49,316 nt of DNA from Deltaproteobacteria bacterium (GTDB taxonomy: Bacteria; Desulfobacterota; B13-G15; RBG-16-54-18), in the NCBI GenBank assembly GCA_030672385.1, contig DAOVGN010000066.1:1-49316 (forward strand), given 5' to 3'. The notes under the pieces were generated by a model. That model was not told the origin of the DNA and ran no database searches. It worked only from the letters and a program-made list of their open reading frames with translations. Shown piece by piece: positions 4,259 to 49,316 of this stretch. The position numbers were made by a program, and so were the translations under genes. Within the stretch, counting starts at the first letter, position 1, and every line of letters begins with the position of its first letter.

Positions 4259-5065
4259 ATGAAGAGGGTGGATCTCATCGCCATCGGGAGGGAGATCTTA
4301 CGGGGACAGACATTGGATACCAACTCACACTGGTTGACCAAGAGAATAACGGCCATGGGGGGGGAGGTAGAACGGATGGTGGTTCTCGACGATGACGTGC
4401 AGGCCATCGCCAGAGAGATAGGGGTTTCCTTTCGGGACGGTGCAAAGGTGATCATCACCACCGGAGGTCTAGGGCCTACCTTCGACGACAAGACCCTGGC
4501 TGGTATCGCCGAGGCGACAGGGTGTCCCCTGTCCCTGCATCCCGGGGCCCTGGAGTTTGTGACCCGCCGGTATCGGGAGTTTTTCGAGCAGGGATTTGTG
4601 GAAAGCCCGGAGATCACCCCCGCCCGTGAAAAGATGGCGCACCTGCCTCAAGGAGTTGAGCCCATGGACAACCCTGTGGGGGCGGCCCCTGCCGTCTTTC
4701 TGAAGACTCCGCGTGGGGTGATCTTCGCCCTGCCCGGCGTACCTAAGGAGATGAAGGCGATCTTTGAGGCAGAAGCCTTTCCCCACCTCAAGGATATACT
4801 GGGTGCCGAAGTCTATCTGGAAGAGGTGGTGAAGACTGGGATGGGGGATGAATCGGTCCTCGGGGAGCTCATCGAGAGGGTCATGAAGCGAGTCCCCGGG
4901 GTCTATCTCAAGTCAAAACCCACCCACTTCGGAAAGGACGTGGAGTTAGAGGTGATCATTACGGCCGCCAGCTCCAGCGAGGAGGAGGTCCACAGGAGGG
5001 TAAAGGAAGCCGAAGGGCTTCTCCTTGACCTCGTCAAAGCCCACCCCACTCGTACTGGAGGATAG
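4259..5065 (+). CDS. CinA-like molybdopterin-binding (MoCF biosynthesis) domain protein
   Basis: 268 aa. IAIGREILRGQTLDTNSHWL and TTGGLGPTFDDKT motifs of the MoaB/MogA/CinA N-terminal fold. Confidence 0.75.
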   Translation: MKRVDLIAIGREILRGQTLDTNSHWLTKRITAMGGEVERMVVLDDDVQAIAREIGVSFRDGAKVIITTGGLGPTFDDKTLAGIAEATGCPLSLHPGALEFVTRRYREFFEQGFVESPEITPAREKMAHLPQGVEPMDNPVGAAPAVFLKTPRGVIFALPGVPKEMKAIFEAEAFPHLKDILGAEVYLEEVVKTGMGDESVLGELIERVMKRVPGVYLKSKPTHFGKDVELEVIITAASSSEEEVHRRVKEAEGLLLDLVKAHPTRTGG

Positions 5066-5073
5066 CGCAGGCG

Positions 5074-5607
5074 TCAGTGGCGCCAATAGGGATCATACCA
5101 GGGATGCCACCACGAATACCATCCCCAGGGGTCCCAAAGCCCCCATGGGTATGGTTCATACGGACGAGGCTCTTCTTTCTCCCACAGATGAATATCTTTG
5201 ATTAAGAGATATGGATAGCGATACTCTATCTCCCCCAGCGGCAGGACCTTCTCCCCCTGCACTGTTCCGGCGATGGTCACTTTTCTCCCCTTTCGGTAGA
5301 TCTCGCTGTCGAGAAGACCCTGATAGAGGGCCAAAAAGCGTCCCTCGGAGCTATCAATCTGGATCGGCATGCCCTCTTGGTCCAGTTGGGTCTGATACAC
5401 CTCCAAGAGGGTCCCCTCCTTTTTATTCAACGTCTTGACGATAACCCCTCCCAGCAGGACCACCTTATCCTTATACGCGTTGGGGTCTTTGACCAGTTCC
5501 GAAAAGATGATCTCCTTATCCACCTCTTTCAGGACGTCTCTGGAGATGGCGTGGACGCAGCCGGATAAAAAGACAAGGGCCATCACGATCGATAAAAGCC
5601 TCCGCAT
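5074..5607 (-). CDS. Slp-family outer-membrane lipoprotein with Trp/Pro/Tyr-rich C-terminal tail
   Basis: Start at ATG 5607, preceded by GGAG. Signal peptide plus lipobox MRRLLSIVMALVFLSGC. Paralogous to the upstream gene (shared motifs below). The tail is PYPWGLWDPWGWYSWWHPWYDPYWRH. Confidence 0.75.
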   Translation of the reverse strand: MRRLLSIVMALVFLSGCVHAISRDVLKEVDKEIIFSELVKDPNAYKDKVVLLGGVIVKTLNKKEGTLLEVYQTQLDQEGMPIQIDSSEGRFLALYQGLLDSEIYRKGRKVTIAGTVQGEKVLPLGEIEYRYPYLLIKDIHLWEKEEPRPYEPYPWGLWDPWGWYSWWHPWYDPYWRH

Positions 5608-5626
5608 CGCTCTCCTCTCGAAGCTT

Positions 5627-6142
5627 CTAAAAACCCACACCGACCCCAAAACCGAAGTGCACCCGGGGTTCTGCAGAAGAGGCCTCCTCTTCTGGCCAGA
5701 GATAAAGCTCCCTCTTCTCGATAATGGGATAGGTATACTCTATCTCCCCTAGCGGACGCACCTCTTTCCCCACCACCACACCCGCTACGGTGACCTTCCT
5801 GCCGTGGCTGTAGATGGCCGGATCGAGGAAACCGGGGGCTGAGAGGATAAACCTCCCCTCTGATATGTCCTTCGCGGCTGGTTTACCCCGAAAGCCGAGA
5901 GGTCGTTGGAGGACGACGACCACGGTTTTATCCGGGAGGTTTTGGGTCTCAATGATGTCCCCTCCCAAAAGCAAGGTCCTCCCCTTATAGGCCTCCGGTT
6001 CTTCCAATAATTGTTCAAAGCTGACATTCTGATCAACTTCCCTCAGCACCTCCCTAGAGATCACCGATGCACAACCAGCCAGCAAAAGGATAGTCAGTAC
6101 GGCAATAAATAAAGGGGAAAAACCACTCCTTACCACACTCAT
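5627..6142 (-). CDS. Slp-family outer-membrane lipoprotein (paralog)
   Basis: 171 aa. Lipobox LLLAGC. Shares the motifs ISREVL.EVD, LLGG.I and PLGEIEY.YP with the downstream paralog. ATGA overlap with the GAF gene. Confidence 0.75.
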   Translation of the reverse strand: MSVVRSGFSPLFIAVLTILLLAGCASVISREVLREVDQNVSFEQLLEEPEAYKGRTLLLGGDIIETQNLPDKTVVVVLQRPLGFRGKPAAKDISEGRFILSAPGFLDPAIYSHGRKVTVAGVVVGKEVRPLGEIEYTYPIIEKRELYLWPEEEASSAEPRVHFGFGVGVGF

Positions 6143-40100: not shown

Positions 40101-41024
40101 TTATAGCACGGACCTTGGGAGCAGGCCTGCTGCTTCAACAATCTCCTGCACCTTATGTTCCCATTCAATGGCCATGAGGTGGATGCCAGAAAGCCCCTCT
40201 ATTTCCCTGAGTTCTTGAATTTGTTCGCATGTTATCTTTATGCCCTCAGAGGCAACCTTTTCTTTTCCTGCTCCCTTTAATCGGTCTATAATTTCTTCCG
40301 GGATGATAATCCCACTGACATTAGCAGCCATATAACGGGCCATACCTACAGATTTGAGTGGTGTGATACCAGCTAAGATCTTACATTTTTCATGCAACCC
40401 CATATCTACCACCTGCTTCATAAATTCTTTAAATCGCTTCATATCATAGATACATTGAGTTTGTATAAAGTCAACCCCGGCTTCTATCTTTTTGGCAAGT
40501 CTGTGAACCCTATACTGAAATGGATCGGCAAAGGGGTTAGATGCCGCCCCGATAAACATCTTGAAGTCGCCTTCTATCTCATCTCCACAGATAACCTTAT
40601 GCTCGTCCCTCATGGTTTTGACCATATGGATCATCTGAATGGAGTCTATATCAAAAACATTCTTTGCCTCAGGGTGATTTCCAAATGATTGATGGTCGCC
40701 GGAAAGGCAGAGCATATTTTTGATTCCAAGGGCAGATGCACCAAAGAGATCAGACATTATGGCTAGTCTATTGCGATCCCTGGCTACCATCTGCATGGTC
40801 GGTTCCAGGCCTTCATCGATCAATATCTTGGACGTAGCAATCGATGACATCCTAACAATGGCTGTCTGGTTATCGGTAATGTTGACTGCATCTACATTGC
40901 CCTTGAGCATGGCTGCCTTTTTTTTAACCACTTCTACATCCGTACCCTTTGGAGGCCCCAACTCGCCGGTAATAACAAATTCACCCTTTTCTAACAGCCC
41001 TTCGAGGTTACTTCCAGATTTCAT
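40101..41024 (-). CDS. metF: methylenetetrahydrofolate reductase, acetogen/sulfate-reducer type
   Basis: 307 aa. FVITGELGPPKG, AVNITDNQ and LCLSGDH motifs. 4-nt overlap with metV. Confidence 0.88.
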   Translation of the reverse strand: MKSGSNLEGLLEKGEFVITGELGPPKGTDVEVVKKKAAMLKGNVDAVNITDNQTAIVRMSSIATSKILIDEGLEPTMQMVARDRNRLAIMSDLFGASALGIKNMLCLSGDHQSFGNHPEAKNVFDIDSIQMIHMVKTMRDEHKVICGDEIEGDFKMFIGAASNPFADPFQYRVHRLAKKIEAGVDFIQTQCIYDMKRFKEFMKQVVDMGLHEKCKILAGITPLKSVGMARYMAANVSGIIIPEEIIDRLKGAGKEKVASEGIKITCEQIQELREIEGLSGIHLMAIEWEHKVQEIVEAAGLLPRSVL

Positions 41025-41713
41025 AACCTAAGATCCTCCCTTACCATCCTTCTTGGGCCACCACTGTGACTCGGTCTCCAGTCTTTGTACTTTTCAACTG
41101 GTTTAATTCGTTCCAGTTCCCCCAGAGCCTCGAGCCGTTCGATAATGAGATGCCACGCACAATCAGTATCCTTATTAATCTCGCATTTTCCATTAGACGA
41201 GCCACCGCATGGACCATTAAGGAGGCTTTTAGCGCACCTGGTAATAGGACAGATACCACCTGTCCTTTCCAGGACACAATCTCCACATCCAAGACAGCGT
41301 TCTTCCCACAGGCCAACATCTATATTGGCACCCATAAAGGTAGTGTTTAACCCTGGAATTACTCGTATAGGTTTCTCCGTGATGATGCGGTTAAAATAGT
41401 TACAGGAATGTTGAACTCCTACCCCACAGGCTATGGATAGTACGACATCAGCCTCTTTTACCTTTTCCAGAAACGCCGTATCGGACATAAACTCATCATC
41501 ACACTGGCGAATTACGATTTCGTCATTGACTTCAACCTTTTTCCCCTCATTGCCAAATGCCAGCTTCAACTCCGATGCCAAAATTTCCGCCTCTTTCTCA
41601 CCCCCTGCCTGGCAGATGGCTACACAGGTCTCACAGCCCAAGACCATGATCTTATTATAATCCTTTACCGATTCCTTGATCTCCTCAAAAGGCTTTCTAT
41701 CTGCTATGATCAT
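41021..41713 (-). CDS. metV: MetV, methylene-THF reductase C-terminal-domain (Cys-rich) subunit
   Basis: 230 aa. CLGCGDCVLERTGGICPITRCAKSLLNGPCGGSSNGKCE...CAW is the MTHFR_C-type Cys pattern. Confidence 0.85.
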   Translation of the reverse strand: MIIADRKPFEEIKESVKDYNKIMVLGCETCVAICQAGGEKEAEILASELKLAFGNEGKKVEVNDEIVIRQCDDEFMSDTAFLEKVKEADVVLSIACGVGVQHSCNYFNRIITEKPIRVIPGLNTTFMGANIDVGLWEERCLGCGDCVLERTGGICPITRCAKSLLNGPCGGSSNGKCEINKDTDCAWHLIIERLEALGELERIKPVEKYKDWRPSHSGGPRRMVREDLRL

Positions 41714-41716
41714 AAA

Positions 41717-42160
41717 TTACTCCTTGTCTTTTTCACTCTCTTGCTGGAGGTTGATCCTATATGGATTGGGTCCTAGCTTTTTAGCACGCTCGGTCATCGT
41801 TTTTACCGTTTCTGCAAACATGGGTGCTTCGGAAGCTGCGATATGAAAAAAGTCGAGCCGTTCACTCCCTAACCCGATCTCATCTAACAGCTTCTTGGTA
41901 TATTCAACCCTTTTCAAGGCCCTTAAATTTCCCTCCAGGAAATTACATGTGCCAGGCTCTCATCCCCCTACGAATATGGCGTCTGCCCCCGCCTCAAAGG
42001 CCTTTAAGATGTGGACAATCTCTACCTTGCCCGTACATAGATAGTAGACTATGCGGACATTAGTGGGATACTGAATCCTTCCAACACCTGCTAAATCAGC
42101 AGCACTGTAGGCGCAGTAATTACAGAGCATGGCCACCACTCTCGGTTCATAATCTCCCAT
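41717..42160 (-). CDS. mvhD: MvhD/FlpD-family [2Fe-2S] electron-transfer subunit, predicted selenoprotein (in-frame UGA at 41962-41960)
   Basis: Track ORFs 41960..42160 and 41717..41917 are in the same frame, separated only by TGA plus 14 sense codons. The joined product is ...VAMLCNYCAYSAADLAGVGRIQYPTNVRIV..CTGKV...ILKAFEAGADAIFVGG-U-EPGTCNFLEGN...RLDFFHIAASE. The TGA sits where MvhD proteins have the first Cys of G-C-x4-C-H/N-Y/F-x2-G-N. Confidence 0.8.
41926..41944 (-). promoter_or_regulatory. candidate bacterial SECIS hairpin downstream of the mvhD UGA
   Basis: On the mRNA strand: AAUUUCC, loop UGGAG, GGAAAUU (7 bp). The loop begins 23 nt after the UGA and is G-rich, which fits bacterial SECIS geometry. 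The stem is AU-rich and short. Confidence 0.4.
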
Positions 42161-42179
42161 TTCTCATTCCCCTTCTTGC

Positions 42180-42287
42180 GTTCATTGAGTTTGTTGGGTT
42201 TGCCTGCTTTGTTAAATCCCCTGCAGGGGCGTCGCCAAGGGCGACATTTAACAGAGTGAATGTTAAAATCCTATGAACTCAATGAAC
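42180..42287. repeat. 108-nt nested palindromic element in the hdrL-mvhD intergenic region
   Basis: The outer 12-bp perfect inverted repeat is GTTCATTGAGTT (42180-42191) and AACTCAATGAAC (42276-42287). The inner 7-bp inverted repeat is GTTAAAT (42211-17) and ATTTAAC (42246-52). The inner repeat encloses two hairpins: CCCC-TGCA-GGGG (42218-29) and GTCGCC-AAG-GGCGAC (42231-45). Confidence 0.8.
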
Positions 42288-42306
42288 AAAATAAACACAA
42301 CAAACA

Positions 42307-45300
42307 CTAATATATGGCCATCAATTTAGGAATTATCTGGCTGTCTTTATAATGCCTTACCTGGATTGCATCATTAGGACACATGGAGGCGCAAATACCA
42401 CATCCCTGGCAGGCTCCCGGGTCGATCTTTGCTACTGCATTTTCATAATCGATCTGGGGCACTCCAAAGGGGCATACCCTGATACAGGTCAAACAAATAG
42501 CACAAAGGTCAGGGTCTACCTCAGCAACAGCTCCACCCACCATCATCTCTTTGTGGGAGATAATAGTACATGCCCTGGAGACTGTCGCTTTTGCCTGGGA
42601 AATGGCTTCATCAATGGCTTTTGGTCCATGGGCCAATCCACAAACAAACATCCCCGCGGAAGCAAACTCTACAGGCCTCAGCTTTGCATGGGCCTCCATG
42701 AAGAAGCCATCCTGATTCATAGCCACCTTAAAGAACTCGGAAAATACACTGTTATCATCGCGCGGTACGATAGCCGAAGCCAGGATTATAATATCGGTAT
42801 CTATCTCCACAGGCCTCTTAATTACCTGATCCTTAACAGTCACCCTGAGCCTGCCATCTCTTTTTTCAACCTTTGGTTTGTCTTCGGTATCATAACGGAT
42901 AAACCGAACACCCTTTAATCGTGCCTCTCTGTATAAATCCTCCCTTTCTCCGTAGGTTCTTATATCCCGGTAAAGGATATAGATATCCATATCAGGGTTT
43001 AATTTCTTGAGGGTCAATGCACTATGGATAGAATGGGTGCAACATACCTTGCTGCAATAGGGTCTGTCTGGCTCCCTGGAGCCAACACACTGGATAAAAA
43101 CAGCGGTGTTTGTCTGTTTTAGCTTGTCTGCATTTTGCATAATCTCCTGATCCATATCCAGAGATAGTAAGATATTGGGGTCTTCTCCATAGAGATACTC
43201 TTCAGGCTCATAACTCTCTGCCCCATTGGCAACAATAGCTGCGCCATAACTCACCTCTGTCTCTTTGCCCTGGGCATCAGTCAATTTGCATCTAAAATTT
43301 CCTATAGTGCCATGTACCTCCTTGATCTCGGTCTGCATATGCACATCAATCAGAGGATTTTCAGTAACCTTTTTAACCATCTCTTCAAGATAAGGCTGTA
43401 TCTCTTCATCCTTCCATGTGGTATGTAATCTAAGGGCTTGGCCGCCCAGTTTATCCTCCCTCTCTATCAAATAGGTCTTAAATCCTTGTTCGGCTAATCC
43501 CAAAGCTGCCGTCATCCCGGCCACACCCCCGCCGACTACCAGGGCCTCCTGACAGATTGTCTGGGGGACCTCATAAAGCTGCTCCAGTGTCGCAGCCCTT
43601 GCTACTGCCATACGCACCAAATCCTTGGCCTTTTCCGTAGCCTTCTCAGGCTCACCCATGTGAACCCATGTGCATTGATCCCGGATATTTGCCATCTCAA
43701 AAAGATACTGGTTAAGGCCGGCTTCCCTGCATGTCTCTCTGAATAATACCTCATGTGTTCTTGGTGTACATGAGGCTACCACTATTCTATTAAGAAGCTT
43801 TTCTTGGATGACCTCCTTCATCTTTACCTGTGTATCTTCTGAACACGTGAAGAGATTAGCCTCTGCATATTCCACATGGGGAAGTGTTTTGGCATATTCC
43901 ACGATCGCCGGGACGTCAGCTACGCCACCTATGTTTATACCGCAATGGCAGATAAAGACACCAATCCTTATAGGCTCTTTACTGACATCCCGTTCAGGCG
44001 GATACTCCTTTGTTTTGATCCTGGTTCCCCTTGCTTCTGCAAGGGCAGAGGTAGCCGAGGCCGCAGCAGCACTGGCCTGGGCAACTGTGTCGGGTATATC
44101 CTTGGGGGCCTCAAATACACCACATGTATAGACCCCCTGCCTTGATGTCGTAACCGGTTCAAAACTACTGGTGTCCACGAAATTGTAATGGTCCAAGTCA
44201 ATACCGATTTTTTTAGCCAAATCAAGGGATCCCTGAGAAATATCAAGCCCTATAGATAAAACTACTATGTCAAAGTCTTCTTGAACCAGTCTTCCAGCCT
44301 CATCTGTATATCTAATTTTGAGGTTTCCAGGCTCGTCACCTGGCAATACATTGTTTATCTTCGACTTTATAAAACGAATCCCTACTTCATCCTTGGCCCT
44401 GTTATAATATCTCTCAAACTCCTTACCATATGTGCGTATATCTATGTAAAAAATAGCTGTATCTAATGGTTCAGGAGAGTGTTCCTTGGCTATCATGGCC
44501 TGCTTTATGGCATAGGTGCAACAGACGCCAGAACAATAACCTTTATCTCCAACTTGAGTATTCCTTGAACCCACACATTGTATCCATGCAATTTTTTTTG
44601 GTTCCTTGTGGTCCGCCGGTCTAACCAGATGACCTTCAAAAGGTCCGGATGCGCTCAAGATTCGTTCAAATTCCAGACTGGTTAAAATGTTTGGATTTTC
44701 AGAATAGCCGTATGTGTCATGATGCCCTGGATCAAATGGGGTAAAACCGGGAGCAAGTATAATGGATCCCACATCTATGGTGTGTTCCTGCGGGATCATG
44801 GTATGATCTATTGCGCCGGCCAGGCAGGCAGAGATACACTGATAACATTCAGAGCAGATCCCACATTTCAGGCAGCGTTGGACCTCGGCCCTTGCCTCCC
44901 CTTCTGTAAACCCCAGAGCTATTTCCTTGAAGCTGCCCTCTCGCTCCTCAAGGGATATCTTCCGCATGGGAGTCCTGGGCAGATGGGGTTCCCCTTCTAT
45001 ATCGGGCTTTTCATAGGACCAATCCTGCTCTCTTCCCTCCTTGAGATCCATGCCGTTCAGATATCGTTGGATGCTCTCAGCCGCCTCTTTCCCACAGGCA
45101 ACAGCCTCAACCACAGACTTTGGCCCATAAAAGGCATCCCCACCTGCAAAGACCCATTCTATTTCTGTCTGAAACGTAACAGGGTCAGCCTCTAAACCTC
45201 TTTTAAATGAGATACCCTCTTTTTCAGCAAAAGAGAGATCAGCGCCCTGTCCGATTGCAACAATTACTGTATCAGCATCCATACTGCTCAAGTCTGTCTC

Positions 45301-46731
45301 GTCATATTGGGGATTGAAGGCCCCTTTTTCGTCGAATACAGCGGTACAGCGCTTGAATTCTATACCCGATAGTTTTCCATCCTTTTTAAGAAAACGTTTG
45401 GGCCCAAGGCTATTGACGATTGTTATTCCCTCTTCAAGGGCCTCTTCAATCTCATAATCCCAGGCCGGCATCTCATCTCTTTTCTCGAGGCATACTAAAA
45501 TTAGCTCCTTAGCCCCTACACGCTTGGCCGTGAGGGCCACATCAATGGCCACATTACCACCACCGATAATAACTGTCTTTTCCCCAACGCTGACCTGATT
45601 CCTAAGGGCCACATCCCTCAAGAAATCAATTCCCTTGATCACTTCAGGAAGGTCTTCTCCTTCCACACGCAACATCAGACTCAGATGGAGACCGGTTGCT
45701 AAAAACAGGGCCTTATAGCCATCCTTTTTAAGGTTATCAAGGGTTATATCTTCACCAAAAGTAACCCCTGTCTTTATCTCAACACCCATATCCTGAATGA
45801 CCTTGACCTCAGCAGCGATTATTTCTCTTGGCAGACGATACTCTGGAATCCCAACGGCCATCATACCGCCTATAACGGAAAGCTTTTCAAATACCGTTAC
45901 CTGGTAACCCTCTTTTACCAAACAATAGGCTGCTGCCAAACCAGCAGGTCCTGAACCGATAATGGCCACTTTCTCTTCTCTTTTATCCTCCACCTCCGGA
46001 ACATACGGGGTCTCACTTGATAGGTCCATATCAGCCAGGAACCAGTGGAGATACTGTATAGAAAGGGGCTCATCCAGATCGCTCCGGGTACAGATCTCCT
46101 CACATGGATGATGGCAGATCCGACCGCATATACCAGGGAAAGGATGTTCCTCTTTAAAGACTTCCAGGGCCTCTCGATATTTGCCCTGGTTTATCAATGC
46201 GATAAAGCCCTGAATGCTTACATGGGCAGGACAGGTGGCCTTACATGGGGCCGTGCCTCTCTTTTCAATTGCAAAGGCACCGGGCATGGCTTGAGGATAG
46301 AGCTTATAAGCAGCTTTTCGATCGCATAACCCCTGATCAAATAGGGAGGGTATGCTAATAGGGCATACCTTTTCGCACTCACCGCAGGCCGTACACTTTG
46401 CCATATCAATATAGCGAGGATGTTCTAAGAGTTTTACCTGGAAATTCCCAGGCTCACCAGTGATATCCATTACATCAGTTAAGGGTAGTATCTCGATATT
46501 CAGATGTCGGCCACATTCCACCAGTTTTGGACCCATAATGCACATAGAGCAATCATTTGTTGGAAATGTCTTATCTAACTGTGCCATCCTGCCGCCAATA
46601 GCGGAATTTTTTTCAACCAGGTATACATAAAAGCCAGAATCTGCGAGGTCAAGGGCAGCCTGCATCCCACCGATACCACCACCTACGACCATCACTGCCC
46701 CAATCTTATCTTTTGCGATCTCTTCTTCCAT
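42307..46731 (-). CDS. hdrL: giant HdrA-like flavoprotein (HdrL type): two HdrA modules with an inserted NfnB/GltD-like NAD(P)H oxidoreductase module
   Basis: 1474 aa.
- Module 1: VVGGGIGGMQAALDLA...FPTNDCSMC...CTACGECEKVCP.
- GltD/NfnB-like part: CKATCPAH...CGRICHHPCEEICTR, IIGSGPAGLAAAYCL, IIGGGNVAIDVA, FAGGDA.
- HdrA core: IQCVGSRN...YCSGVCC.
- Module 2: VVGGGVAGMTAALGLA, IQCVGSRE...YCSKVCC.
- C-terminal 2x[4Fe-4S] ferredoxin: CAICLTCIRVCP...CQGCGICASMCP. Confidence 0.85.
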   Translation of the reverse strand: MEEEIAKDKIGAVMVVGGGIGGMQAALDLADSGFYVYLVEKNSAIGGRMAQLDKTFPTNDCSMCIMGPKLVECGRHLNIEILPLTDVMDITGEPGNFQVKLLEHPRYIDMAKCTACGECEKVCPISIPSLFDQGLCDRKAAYKLYPQAMPGAFAIEKRGTAPCKATCPAHVSIQGFIALINQGKYREALEVFKEEHPFPGICGRICHHPCEEICTRSDLDEPLSIQYLHWFLADMDLSSETPYVPEVEDKREEKVAIIGSGPAGLAAAYCLVKEGYQVTVFEKLSVIGGMMAVGIPEYRLPREIIAAEVKVIQDMGVEIKTGVTFGEDITLDNLKKDGYKALFLATGLHLSLMLRVEGEDLPEVIKGIDFLRDVALRNQVSVGEKTVIIGGGNVAIDVALTAKRVGAKELILVCLEKRDEMPAWDYEIEEALEEGITIVNSLGPKRFLKKDGKLSGIEFKRCTAVFDEKGAFNPQYDETDLSSMDADTVIVAIGQGADLSFAEKEGISFKRGLEADPVTFQTEIEWVFAGGDAFYGPKSVVEAVACGKEAAESIQRYLNGMDLKEGREQDWSYEKPDIEGEPHLPRTPMRKISLEEREGSFKEIALGFTEGEARAEVQRCLKCGICSECYQCISACLAGAIDHTMIPQEHTIDVGSIILAPGFTPFDPGHHDTYGYSENPNILTSLEFERILSASGPFEGHLVRPADHKEPKKIAWIQCVGSRNTQVGDKGYCSGVCCTYAIKQAMIAKEHSPEPLDTAIFYIDIRTYGKEFERYYNRAKDEVGIRFIKSKINNVLPGDEPGNLKIRYTDEAGRLVQEDFDIVVLSIGLDISQGSLDLAKKIGIDLDHYNFVDTSSFEPVTTSRQGVYTCGVFEAPKDIPDTVAQASAAAASATSALAEARGTRIKTKEYPPERDVSKEPIRIGVFICHCGINIGGVADVPAIVEYAKTLPHVEYAEANLFTCSEDTQVKMKEVIQEKLLNRIVVASCTPRTHEVLFRETCREAGLNQYLFEMANIRDQCTWVHMGEPEKATEKAKDLVRMAVARAATLEQLYEVPQTICQEALVVGGGVAGMTAALGLAEQGFKTYLIEREDKLGGQALRLHTTWKDEEIQPYLEEMVKKVTENPLIDVHMQTEIKEVHGTIGNFRCKLTDAQGKETEVSYGAAIVANGAESYEPEEYLYGEDPNILLSLDMDQEIMQNADKLKQTNTAVFIQCVGSREPDRPYCSKVCCTHSIHSALTLKKLNPDMDIYILYRDIRTYGEREDLYREARLKGVRFIRYDTEDKPKVEKRDGRLRVTVKDQVIKRPVEIDTDIIILASAIVPRDDNSVFSEFFKVAMNQDGFFMEAHAKLRPVEFASAGMFVCGLAHGPKAIDEAISQAKATVSRACTIISHKEMMVGGAVAEVDPDLCAICLTCIRVCPFGVPQIDYENAVAKIDPGACQGCGICASMCPNDAIQVRHYKDSQIIPKLMAIY

Positions 46732-46742
46732 TGAGGTTCTCC

Positions 46743-47615
46743 CTACTCAGATAAAAATCCCTTTATTGAGGTTATATCCATCTGATTCATTCCCAATCCT
46801 AATGTATCCCTATCAATACCCAAGCTCAATCCAAGAAGCTGTGGATATAAAATAGAGGGGAGATGATGGTTCCCACCCCGTTTGGCGAGGATCATCTTTT
46901 GAACCGTATCAAACTGGATCTGGCAGTATGGACAGGCAGTACAGAGATAATCAGCACCAGATTTCTTCCCGTCCGACAGTTTTTTTTCGGTCAAGTCCAT
47001 CGATAGATCATCATTTATTCCCCACAATGGGGCACCGCAACATTCAAGTTGAGTCGGCCAATAGATACTTTTGGCACCAGTGATCTCAACGAGTTGATCA
47101 AATATAGATGGGGCCACCGGATCATCAAATTGGACTATTTGGCTTGGGCGCAAGACATGGCAGCCATAGTGGGTAGCAATCTTAAGGTCCGAAAAGGTCT
47201 TCTCTATCTTCTCTTTTATAGGCTCAATACCTACATCATGGTAGAGGGCATAAAGAAAATGTTTGACTTCAATATCTCCCTCATATTTCAAACCTTCTCT
47301 GTTCAGAATGGTATTAATCTCTTGCCTTAAGGAAACATCTTCCTTCAAAAGATAAGCTACCTTCTTGAGGCTGCCGTAGCAGCATTTACAGAGAACCATC
47401 ACGTTCAGGTCCTCCCTTTCAGCCAGGGCGAGATTTCTGGCTGAAGAGAGAACAAATGCCTTAAAGTCGAGGTTCCTTAAGGGATATCCGCAGCAATTGA
47501 ATTCCCTTATATCCACCAAACCTACACCGAGTTTTCCTAAAATCGCCCTTGCTGAGGATTCGTATTGTTCAAGACGGGCCGGAATGTTGCAACCGAGAAA
47601 TAGAGCAACCTTCAT
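46743..47615 (-). CDS. hdrB: heterodisulfide reductase subunit B-like (two CCG domains)
   Basis: 290 aa. FLGCNIP...FNCCGYP and a second ECCGAPL...CPYC. 4-nt overlap with the upstream gene. Confidence 0.88.
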   Translation of the reverse strand: MKVALFLGCNIPARLEQYESSARAILGKLGVGLVDIREFNCCGYPLRNLDFKAFVLSSARNLALAEREDLNVMVLCKCCYGSLKKVAYLLKEDVSLRQEINTILNREGLKYEGDIEVKHFLYALYHDVGIEPIKEKIEKTFSDLKIATHYGCHVLRPSQIVQFDDPVAPSIFDQLVEITGAKSIYWPTQLECCGAPLWGINDDLSMDLTEKKLSDGKKSGADYLCTACPYCQIQFDTVQKMILAKRGGNHHLPSILYPQLLGLSLGIDRDTLGLGMNQMDITSIKGFLSE

Positions 47616-49316
47616 AATCTCTCTTCCATCTCCAGTGATGCCTTTTCTCTTACCTGTTTGATTGCTAAATTCTTCAGTTCATAGAGCACATCGGTAATAC
47701 ATACCCCCTGAGGACATTGTTCCTGGCACTGATAACAGGTGAGACAATCCCACAGCATATTTGAACCAAAGGCCAGATCCCTCACTCCCAATGCACAGGC
47801 GTGCATGATCTGGTGGGGCAACAGACCCAGGACCTCCTGAGGGTCTTCGTAATTGGCCACAACAGGACAGGCGTTGGTGCATGTTTGACAGCCAAAGCAA
47901 CCCGAAAAGGTGCTTGCCTGGGCTGATAAGCTTAGCCCGCTTTGAAAATCCCTATCAGCAGGGGTCAGAGGTAAGACCTTATCCGGTTCTTTCATTAACT
48001 CACACTCAGCAACAATAGCCTCTCTGGCCTTCGCTAAGGGTTTCGCATAATCCTTTTGAATTGTTTCCTCCTTCATCAAGCCCCGGTAAAAAGAGAGGGG
48101 TGAGAGAAGAAGAAACTCAGGATAACCCTCTTGCAACAAAGCCTCCTTCACGTTGAACCACAAATCCTGCAGGTTGATACCCACCGGACAGACCACAGTG
48201 CATCGATAGCAATTGGTACAGAGACAAATCCCCTCTTGAATATCCTTAAGCTCTCGCTCACTCAGTCCCCTGCCAGCAGCAAGTGCCTTTATTGAAGCTA
48301 TCTTCTCAGATGGAAGGATGTTCAGATTGGGAATTTGCTCTGAGGCGACAGCAACGGAACATCGGGATGTGCAGGTCCCACAATGGGTGCAGGCATCCAG
48401 CTCCATGACCTGCCTGGTGGCTATATTGGCTGGATCTGAGCTCTCTTTGTCCATAACAGCATTGGCCAACAGGCTCAACGGGCTGGCAACGATATGGAAC
48501 ATTTTACTAAAAGGAAGATAGGCCAAACCCAGCAAGCAGGCTATGAAATGGATATACCAGAGGAGGATAGGTATATTAACCCTGTCCAGTCCCAGGGCTA
48601 TCGGCCTGATGATCCTGGCCACCCCATAGCCGGTAAATGCCCATTGGGGGCGAGAGTGACACTCAACACAACTCATTTCATGGAGTTCCTTGCCCTGCGC
48701 CAGAGTCTGCGCATCAAACGGCCCCTTCAAACTGGGGGACACTACCCCATAGTCATCTACCCAATAGGCCTCCAAAGACCTAAGCTCGCGCTCATCATCC
48801 AGACCGGCATAGTCATCTACCATCTGCTGGTAGATTGAGTGAGATACAATCTTTGTGCCCTCCAGAGTAATTCCAGAAAAAATGATGATGGCCACAAGGA
48901 CAATAGCGTAATAATCCATGGCGTTGGTTAACAGACGAGGCACCCTCAAAATGAAACGCCGATAAACCGCAATAACCAAGCCCAAAATTACCAAGGCACC
49001 AAATAGATCCCTCAAAAACATAAACGGGTTGATGGTCGAAAAATAGTCTGGAAATAGGGCAGAGGTTACGAATCTATCCAAGGCATGCATCAGAAAAAGC
49101 AACACAAACCCACCATATATACAAATGTGCATGAGCCACCTGAGAAAGTCCTCCCTCAATATCCTTACGTTCAAAACAACATCAAGGACAAAGACCTTCA
49201 AAAGGGTAAGGATCTTTGCGCTGAATAAGGTCAATAGGATTCCTTTGAAGGCTGCAAAAACCCTTCCTAAGGCTGTGATCTCTCTGGCATCTATACCGAT
49301 TTTGTATCGAAACCAA
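47612..49316 (-). CDS. membrane-anchored HdrC-like iron-sulfur protein: NarI/DsrM/HdrE-like polytopic domain fused to two 2x[4Fe-4S] HdrC-like modules; possibly 5'-partial
   Basis: The track ORF (TTG start at 49234) is 540 aa. The same frame stays open with no stop to the window end, so the N-terminus may lie outside the window. There are at least five hydrophobic helices with conserved-looking His residues (MHICIYGG...LMHALD, WYIHFIA, FHIV). FeS motifs: CTHCGTCTSRC...CTNCYRCTVVCP and CFGCQTCTNACP...CLTCYQCQEQCP. Confidence 0.75.
   Translation of the reverse strand, partial: WFRYKIGIDAREITALGRVFAAFKGILLTLFSAKILTLLKVFVLDVVLNVRILREDFLRWLMHICIYGGFVLLFLMHALDRFVTSALFPDYFSTINPFMFLRDLFGALVILGLVIAVYRRFILRVPRLLTNAMDYYAIVLVAIIIFSGITLEGTKIVSHSIYQQMVDDYAGLDDERELRSLEAYWVDDYGVVSPSLKGPFDAQTLAQGKELHEMSCVECHSRPQWAFTGYGVARIIRPIALGLDRVNIPILLWYIHFIACLLGLAYLPFSKMFHIVASPLSLLANAVMDKESSDPANIATRQVMELDACTHCGTCTSRCSVAVASEQIPNLNILPSEKIASIKALAAGRGLSERELKDIQEGICLCTNCYRCTVVCPVGINLQDLWFNVKEALLQEGYPEFLLLSPLSFYRGLMKEETIQKDYAKPLAKAREAIVAECELMKEPDKVLPLTPADRDFQSGLSLSAQASTFSGCFGCQTCTNACPVVANYEDPQEVLGLLPHQIMHACALGVRDLAFGSNMLWDCLTCYQCQEQCPQGVCITDVLYELKNLAIKQVREKASLEMEERL

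Follow-up and report, generated by a model that had tools for sequence, protein, structure and literature searches.

Genes and features of the locus

The window, i.e. the whole stretch of 49,316 nucleotides that was analyzed, comes from a marine-sediment deltaproteobacterial MAG and carries a co-directional, tightly packed gene cluster transcribed in the order hdrC-like, hdrB-like, hdrA/hdrL-like, mvhD, metV-like and metF. The genes of the cluster and the features of mvhD are the following:

47612..49234, minus strand: hdrC-like ferredoxin-domain gene (Pfam Fer4_8, Fer4_9)
46743..47615, minus strand: hdrB-like gene with CCG domains (Pfam PF02754, E 3.5e-22)
42307..46731, minus strand: hdrA/hdrL-like flavoprotein gene, 1474 aa, uninterrupted (Pfam Pyr_redox_2, Fer4_20, Fer4)
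42160..41717, minus strand: mvhD coding sequence, 147 codons and a TAA stop (41719..41717), with predicted selenocysteine (Sec) at codon 67
42113..42124, minus strand: N-terminal C13-x-x-C16 motif with both Cys (C13 invariant; at position 16, 71 of 81 sequences have C and 10 have U)
42035..42037, minus strand: conserved Cys42 (C in 80 of 81 sequences)
41962..41960, minus strand: in-frame TGA, predicted Sec codon (U67), as judged from aligned TGA/TGY codons, the absence of metagenome variants and VhuD chain 9sfi_K
41906..41958, minus strand: possible extended lower SECIS stem (RNAfold, -14.4 kcal/mol for a 55-nt element)
41945..41947, minus strand: conserved Cys72, the second Cys of U-x4-C (C in 81 of 81 sequences)
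41944..41926, minus strand: core SECIS-like hairpin AAUUUCC-UGGAG-GGAAAUU within codons N73-F-L-E-G-N78-L79 (folding and comparison)
41021..41713, minus strand: metV-like gene, methylene-THF reductase C-terminal domain protein (Pfam PF12225, E 9.2e-37)
40101..41024, minus strand: metF, methylenetetrahydrofolate reductase (Pfam PF02219, E 1.3e-41; synteny)

Residues 76-130 of the HdrC-like protein show a weak match to Pfam Nitrate_red_gam, a NarI-type membrane subunit, which suggests that the Hdr-MvhD-MetVF module may be anchored in the membrane through this protein.

Reading frame and identity of mvhD

The mvhD frame is opened by an ATG at 42160 of the minus strand. In the preliminary description the gene was held to be interrupted by an in-frame TGA, with the two 66-residue ORFs at 41960..42160 and 41717..41917 (minus strand) as its pieces, and this was confirmed: the coordinates place both ORFs in one frame, all 14 codons between the TGA and the second ORF are sense codons, and translation of the TGA as U gives a product of 147 residues containing ...GADAIFVGG-U-EPGTCNFLEGN.... 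The assignment to MvhD made there holds as well, since the joined product matches the Pfam FlpD/MvhD family PF02662 over its full length (profile positions 1-123 of 123, E 1.3e-44, 151.6 bits against a cut-off of 22.3). It also matches every solved MvhD/VhuD chain in the PDB, with E values from 2.6e-41 to 8.5e-34, and alignment with these structures puts the TGA where it had been proposed to lie, at the first Cys of the motif G-C-x4-C-x-[YF]-x2-G-N.

Selenocysteine and cysteine among related loci

Our search for related loci yielded 80, most of them from Desulfobacteraceae/Desulfobacterales or other Thermodesulfobacteriota MAGs and a few from Chloroflexota, Actinomycetota, Bipolaricaulota or Bathyarchaeota. 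At the codon corresponding to 41962..41960, 44 of the 80 loci carry TGA and the remaining 36 carry TGC or TGT. The alignment of 81 sequences thus consists of a Sec set of 45, made up of the window and the 44 TGA loci, and a Cys set of 36. On the protein tree the window falls inside an 18-member clade (SH-aLRT 98) whose members all carry TGA, and well-supported branches force at least three switches between Sec and Cys.

A different type of Sec-containing mvhD was observed at ten loci (L048, L061, L064, L065, L066, L068, L071, L072, L073 and L076), where position 67 is Cys and an in-frame TGA replaces the latter Cys of the CxxC motif near the N-terminus (C-x-Y-U). Zhang and Gladyshev described two Sec in archaeal members of the family and one or the other in bacterial ones (PMC1976440). 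Our counts reproduce this one-or-other pattern, with 45 sequences having U67 only, 10 having U16 only, 26 having neither and none having both.

The gene order hdrA-mvhD-metV-metF is retained in most related loci, around Sec and Cys forms of mvhD alike. At 33 of the Sec and 28 of the Cys loci mvhD is preceded by an hdrA/hdrL-like gene, and at 37 and 24 of them, respectively, it is followed by a metV-like gene.

A SECIS-like hairpin within the coding sequence

The 7-bp hairpin noticed earlier at 41926-41944 is present. Its stem AAUUUCC/GGAAAUU encloses the loop UGGAG, the first stem base is the 16th nucleotide past the UGA, and the whole occupies positions 19-37 counted from the UGA, with a UGA-to-loop spacing of 22 nt. 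Taken alone it is statistically unremarkable, the core having only -5.2 kcal/mol and the 76-nt stretch that contains it folding no better than shuffled sequences (z = -0.45); what makes it significant is how it compares between the related loci. Codons 74-78 read TTC CTG GAR GGA AAT in 44 of 45 Sec loci, whereas in the 36 Cys loci they are freely variable, and none of the eight Cys loci that encode FLEGN uses GGA as the Gly codon. Recent ancestry does not account for these fixed codons, because their neighbors in the Sec loci show all synonymous forms (GGC, GGA, GGT and GGG for Gly70, TGT and TGC for Cys72, six Leu codons at position 79). Of the seven stem pairs, six or seven can form in nearly all Sec loci (43 of 45), as opposed to two to five in nearly all Cys loci (35 of 36), and local folding is more favorable in the Sec loci even though their G+C is lower (Mann-Whitney p = 7e-10).

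The stem varies so little that it offers few cases of real covariation. The sole exception at codons 74-78, L060, has TAC...GGT, a compensatory change of a U-A pair into A-U, while a GGG codon in L001, L003 and L017 turns a U-A pair into a wobble U-G. The only population variant within the stem, 41930 T>C, likewise leaves the pair as U-G. The lower-stem pairs of the extended element are not conserved across the related loci.

The bSECIS model describes an apical loop of 3-9 nt of the form N1-G-[G/U]-N-N2 with a G in its first two positions, an upper stem of 4-16 bp, a UGA-loop distance of 16-37 nt and a minimum free energy of -7.5 kcal/mol or lower (PMC13188914). The mvhD hairpin agrees with it in loop (U-G-G-A-G), stem (7 bp) and spacing (22 nt). 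As for the energy, the 55-nt element, at -14.4 kcal/mol, lies within the limit, while the core alone, at -5.2, does not. A search of Rfam returned no SECIS-type match at gathering or permissive thresholds, only chance matches with E > 0.7. That the hairpin behaves as a bacterial SECIS is, judging by the comparison of the loci, strongly supported.

The peptide FLEGN is found in 44 of the 45 Sec forms and in 8 of the 36 Cys forms, the latter having Y or F, then L, I or V, and many different residues at the E position. As read from the alignment, the SECIS hairpin also constrains this protein motif, and the comparison of the loci illustrates neatly how a SECIS inside a coding region restricts synonymous sites and a peptide motif at the same time.

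Probable recoding of the TGA and alternative explanations

We consider it very probable, on comparative grounds, that mvhD is one intact gene for a 147-residue [2Fe-2S] electron-transfer subunit in which UGA codon 67 is recoded to selenocysteine. The hairpin, lying within the coding sequence with its loop 22 nt past the UGA, would act as a bacterial SECIS and recruit SelB, with GTP and Sec-tRNA(Sec), to the ribosome, where Sec would be inserted and no termination would take place; SelB presumably binds the hairpin itself. The resulting Sec-MvhD would cooperate with the HdrB/C-like subunits and with the HdrA/HdrL-like flavoprotein encoded upstream, and would exchange electrons, one at a time, with MetVF, the methylene-tetrahydrofolate reductase whose genes follow immediately downstream.

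The UGA could also be read through without Sec-tRNA(Sec), either by near-cognate insertion of Cys or Trp or through a lineage-wide reassignment of TGA, and Cys at position 67 is indeed functional in 36 homologues. Against this, TGA terminates 15 of the 40 long non-overlapping ORFs in the window; it is thus an ordinary stop codon there, and reassignment was rejected for that reason. In addition, only the TGA loci conserve a hairpin that agrees with the SECIS consensus of the SelB type, and selenoproteins with Sec at this very site are already established in the family. We regard read-through of this kind as quite unlikely.

Less still can be said for a true nonsense mutation, or a sequencing or assembly error, that leaves mvhD truncated or a pseudogene. 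Standard ORF calling does end at 41960, as such an event would predict, but the identical TGA is found in 44 other loci of different species. Codons 68-135 evolve with dN/dS of 0.05-0.23, next to 0.01-0.15 for codons 1-66 (relatives of ~83% amino acid identity or more, dS 0.3-1.6), and the codons downstream of the TGA are under purifying selection. Resequencing had been proposed as a check for TGC or TGT at 41960-41962. Four independent marine-sediment metagenome runs contain the window sequence; their contigs show no alternative letter at these positions, whereas the adjoining synonymous third-codon sites (41963 and 41966) do vary. The TGA did not arise from a sequencing error, and a pseudogene was rejected on the same three lines of evidence as a nearly negligible possibility.

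Equally improbable are two separate polypeptides, of which the N-terminal one of 66 residues would stop at the TGA and the C-terminal one of 66 residues would re-initiate at the TTG at 41917, an arrangement that the equal size of the two ORFs might bring to mind. The 14 codons between the ORFs, with the invariant Cys72 and FLEGN, are conserved at the protein level, the Pfam domain runs unbroken across the junction, and the Cys homologues are single chains. What the preliminary description had taken for a downstream Met is in fact this TTG codon, Leu82 of the joined protein; since the codon aligned with it in relatives is CTG, GCG, GCA, CAG or AAA, the apparent start was produced by the mechanical ORF calling. 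The split gene was rejected on these grounds, and the low dN/dS after the TGA together with the retained inter-ORF codons speaks against split gene and pseudogene alike.

Genes for selenocysteine insertion

With the E. coli proteins as tblastn queries, no match to SelA, SelB or SelD was found in the 49-kb window, and the window and the 80 related loci together gave a single match, a selD in L069. ARAGORN detected no tRNA-Sec in the window or in 60 of the related loci, the sole tRNA of the window being a tRNA-Val. That none of these genes turned up in the window counts against the Sec reading; we infer that selABCD are carried by this genome.

The selD of L069, a Syntrophorhabdales MAG, lies at 4903-5922 directly upstream of a Cys-type mvhD, and its product is 39% identical to E. 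coli SelD. In L133, a Desulfobacterales MAG, SelD (1492-2556) is itself a selenoprotein with an in-frame TGA in SG-U-ASK. A contig search seeded with these two SelD proteins found, apart from L069's own, no assembly among the carriers of TGA-mvhD, as far as accession prefixes matched by eye can tell.

Comparison with known systems

A current tabulation of prokaryotic selenoproteins lists the MvhD family (PMC13188914), and the precedent in deltaproteobacterial sulfate reducers on which the preliminary description relied is borne out by the literature. Sec-containing mvhD genes have been described in Desulfobacterium autotrophicum HRM2 (mvhD1/2/3/5; PMC2702500) and Desulfococcus multivorans (PMC5109826), and in the delta symbionts of Olavius algarvensis the bacterial family members use for Sec one of the two positions that hold it in archaea (PMC1976440). 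These marine deltaproteobacterial proteins share with the one described here the family PF02662, a single Sec in place of a conserved Cys and a gene position right after an hdrA/hdrL-type gene. They come from the same type of organism and habitat, and in these features we see no difference in kind.

The other precedent, VhuD of Methanococcus, proved to be exact. The best PDB match, 9sfi_K (E 2.6e-41), contains two non-standard residues X, of which the first falls opposite C16 and the second opposite U67, and VhuD (PDB 9sfi/9t1s) has the same fold and belongs to the same family as the window MvhD. The two nevertheless differ in several respects. Methanococcus VhuD has two Sec (CxxU and GU), whereas the window protein has Cys16 and a TGA at position 67 only. 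Archaeal SECIS elements sit in the UTR and not in the coding sequence (PMC13188914), while the mvhD hairpin lies inside the coding sequence. Because it contains a single Sec and scores 163.4 bits with the NCBIfam VhuD model NF045873, below the cut-off of 215, the window protein is not a VhuD equivalog. VhuD is the delta subunit of an F420-non-reducing [NiFeSe] hydrogenase, in contrast to the window MvhD, whose partners are MetVF and an HdrL-type protein; Pfam revealed no hydrogenase genes in the cluster at 40101-49234.

Among bacterial proteins, BamF of the class II benzoyl-CoA reductase of Geobacter metallireducens is likewise an MvhD-homologous [2Fe-2S] adaptor with one Sec in an HdrA-type bifurcating complex (bioRxiv 10.64898/2026.04.10.717634), but its Sec lies close to the N-terminus, at residue 19, and not at the place of U67, and BamF is more than 100 residues longer. 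In gene order the closest likeness is to the Hdr-type methylene-THF reductase of Moorella thermoacetica and Sporomusa ovata, which shows the same succession hdr(C/B/A)-mvhD-metV-metF, and in S. ovata MvhD physically interacts with HdrA, HdrB and MetF (PMC9430772). That paper makes no mention of selenocysteine or selenium. The window cluster differs from the HdrCBA-MvhD-MetVF clusters of these two bacteria in that its MvhD has Sec and its HdrA is a 1474-aa HdrL-type fusion.

Sec-containing MvhD has thus already been described, in Desulfobacteraceae and in the Olavius symbionts, and the present case is an annotation fix and not a discovery, which leaves the current understanding of the MvhD family unchanged. 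Its value for annotation is that two 66-aa "hypothetical" pieces become one selenoprotein subunit of an Hdr-MvhD-MetVF methylene-THF reductase module. For this marine-sediment deltaproteobacterium, Sec-MvhD implies that Wood-Ljungdahl and electron-bifurcation chemistry depends on selenium.

Cysteine positions and the [2Fe-2S] cluster

Five positions, 13, 16, 42, 67 and 72, are conserved as C or U (80-81 of the 81 sequences), the window protein having C, C, C, U and C there; C16 is the alternative Sec position of other bacterial MvhD. By homology to the solved MvhD/VhuD chains and from the literature, the mvhD product can be expected to bind a [2Fe-2S] cluster. The openly available texts contained no explicit list of the Cys that ligate the cluster of MvhD. 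Methanogen MvhD has a non-ligand Cys near the cluster, and the same residue is Sec19 in BamF (bioRxiv 10.64898/2026.04.10.717634), which, going by its N-terminal position, probably matches C16 here. The ten U16-type loci would accordingly resemble BamF in the site of their Sec. With the C16-like residue being a non-ligand, elimination leaves C13, C42, U67 and C72 as the four ligands, and it is plausible that U67 ligates the cluster together with the three Cys.

More specifically, Sec67 could be a direct selenolate ligand of the [2Fe-2S] cluster rather than a redox-active residue close to it, a reading that we put forward tentatively. If it holds, the MetVF-linked Hdr module has a selenium-ligated iron-sulfur cluster, and the Sec and Cys forms, as well as the mutually exclusive U16 and U67, would represent alternative tunings of one electron relay. 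The same reading would make AUUUCC-UGGAR-GGAAAU a very small SECIS, common to several phyla, that also freezes FLEGN.

The hdrL-mvhD spacer

The 146-nt spacer between hdrL and mvhD (42161-42306) contains a long palindromic element with a folding energy of -40.6 kcal/mol. This palindrome is hypervariable in close relatives: L003, L004 and L017 have a similar one of the GTTTGTTG/CAACAAAC type, L001, L005 and L007 have a different, TTTTCGATTTT-type palindrome, and in L008, L010 and L014-L016 hdrL and mvhD nearly adjoin. Metagenome contigs break inside 42163-42262, and one run has 12 other letters for 42202-42270. The element looks like a variably inserted REP/MITE-like hairpin.
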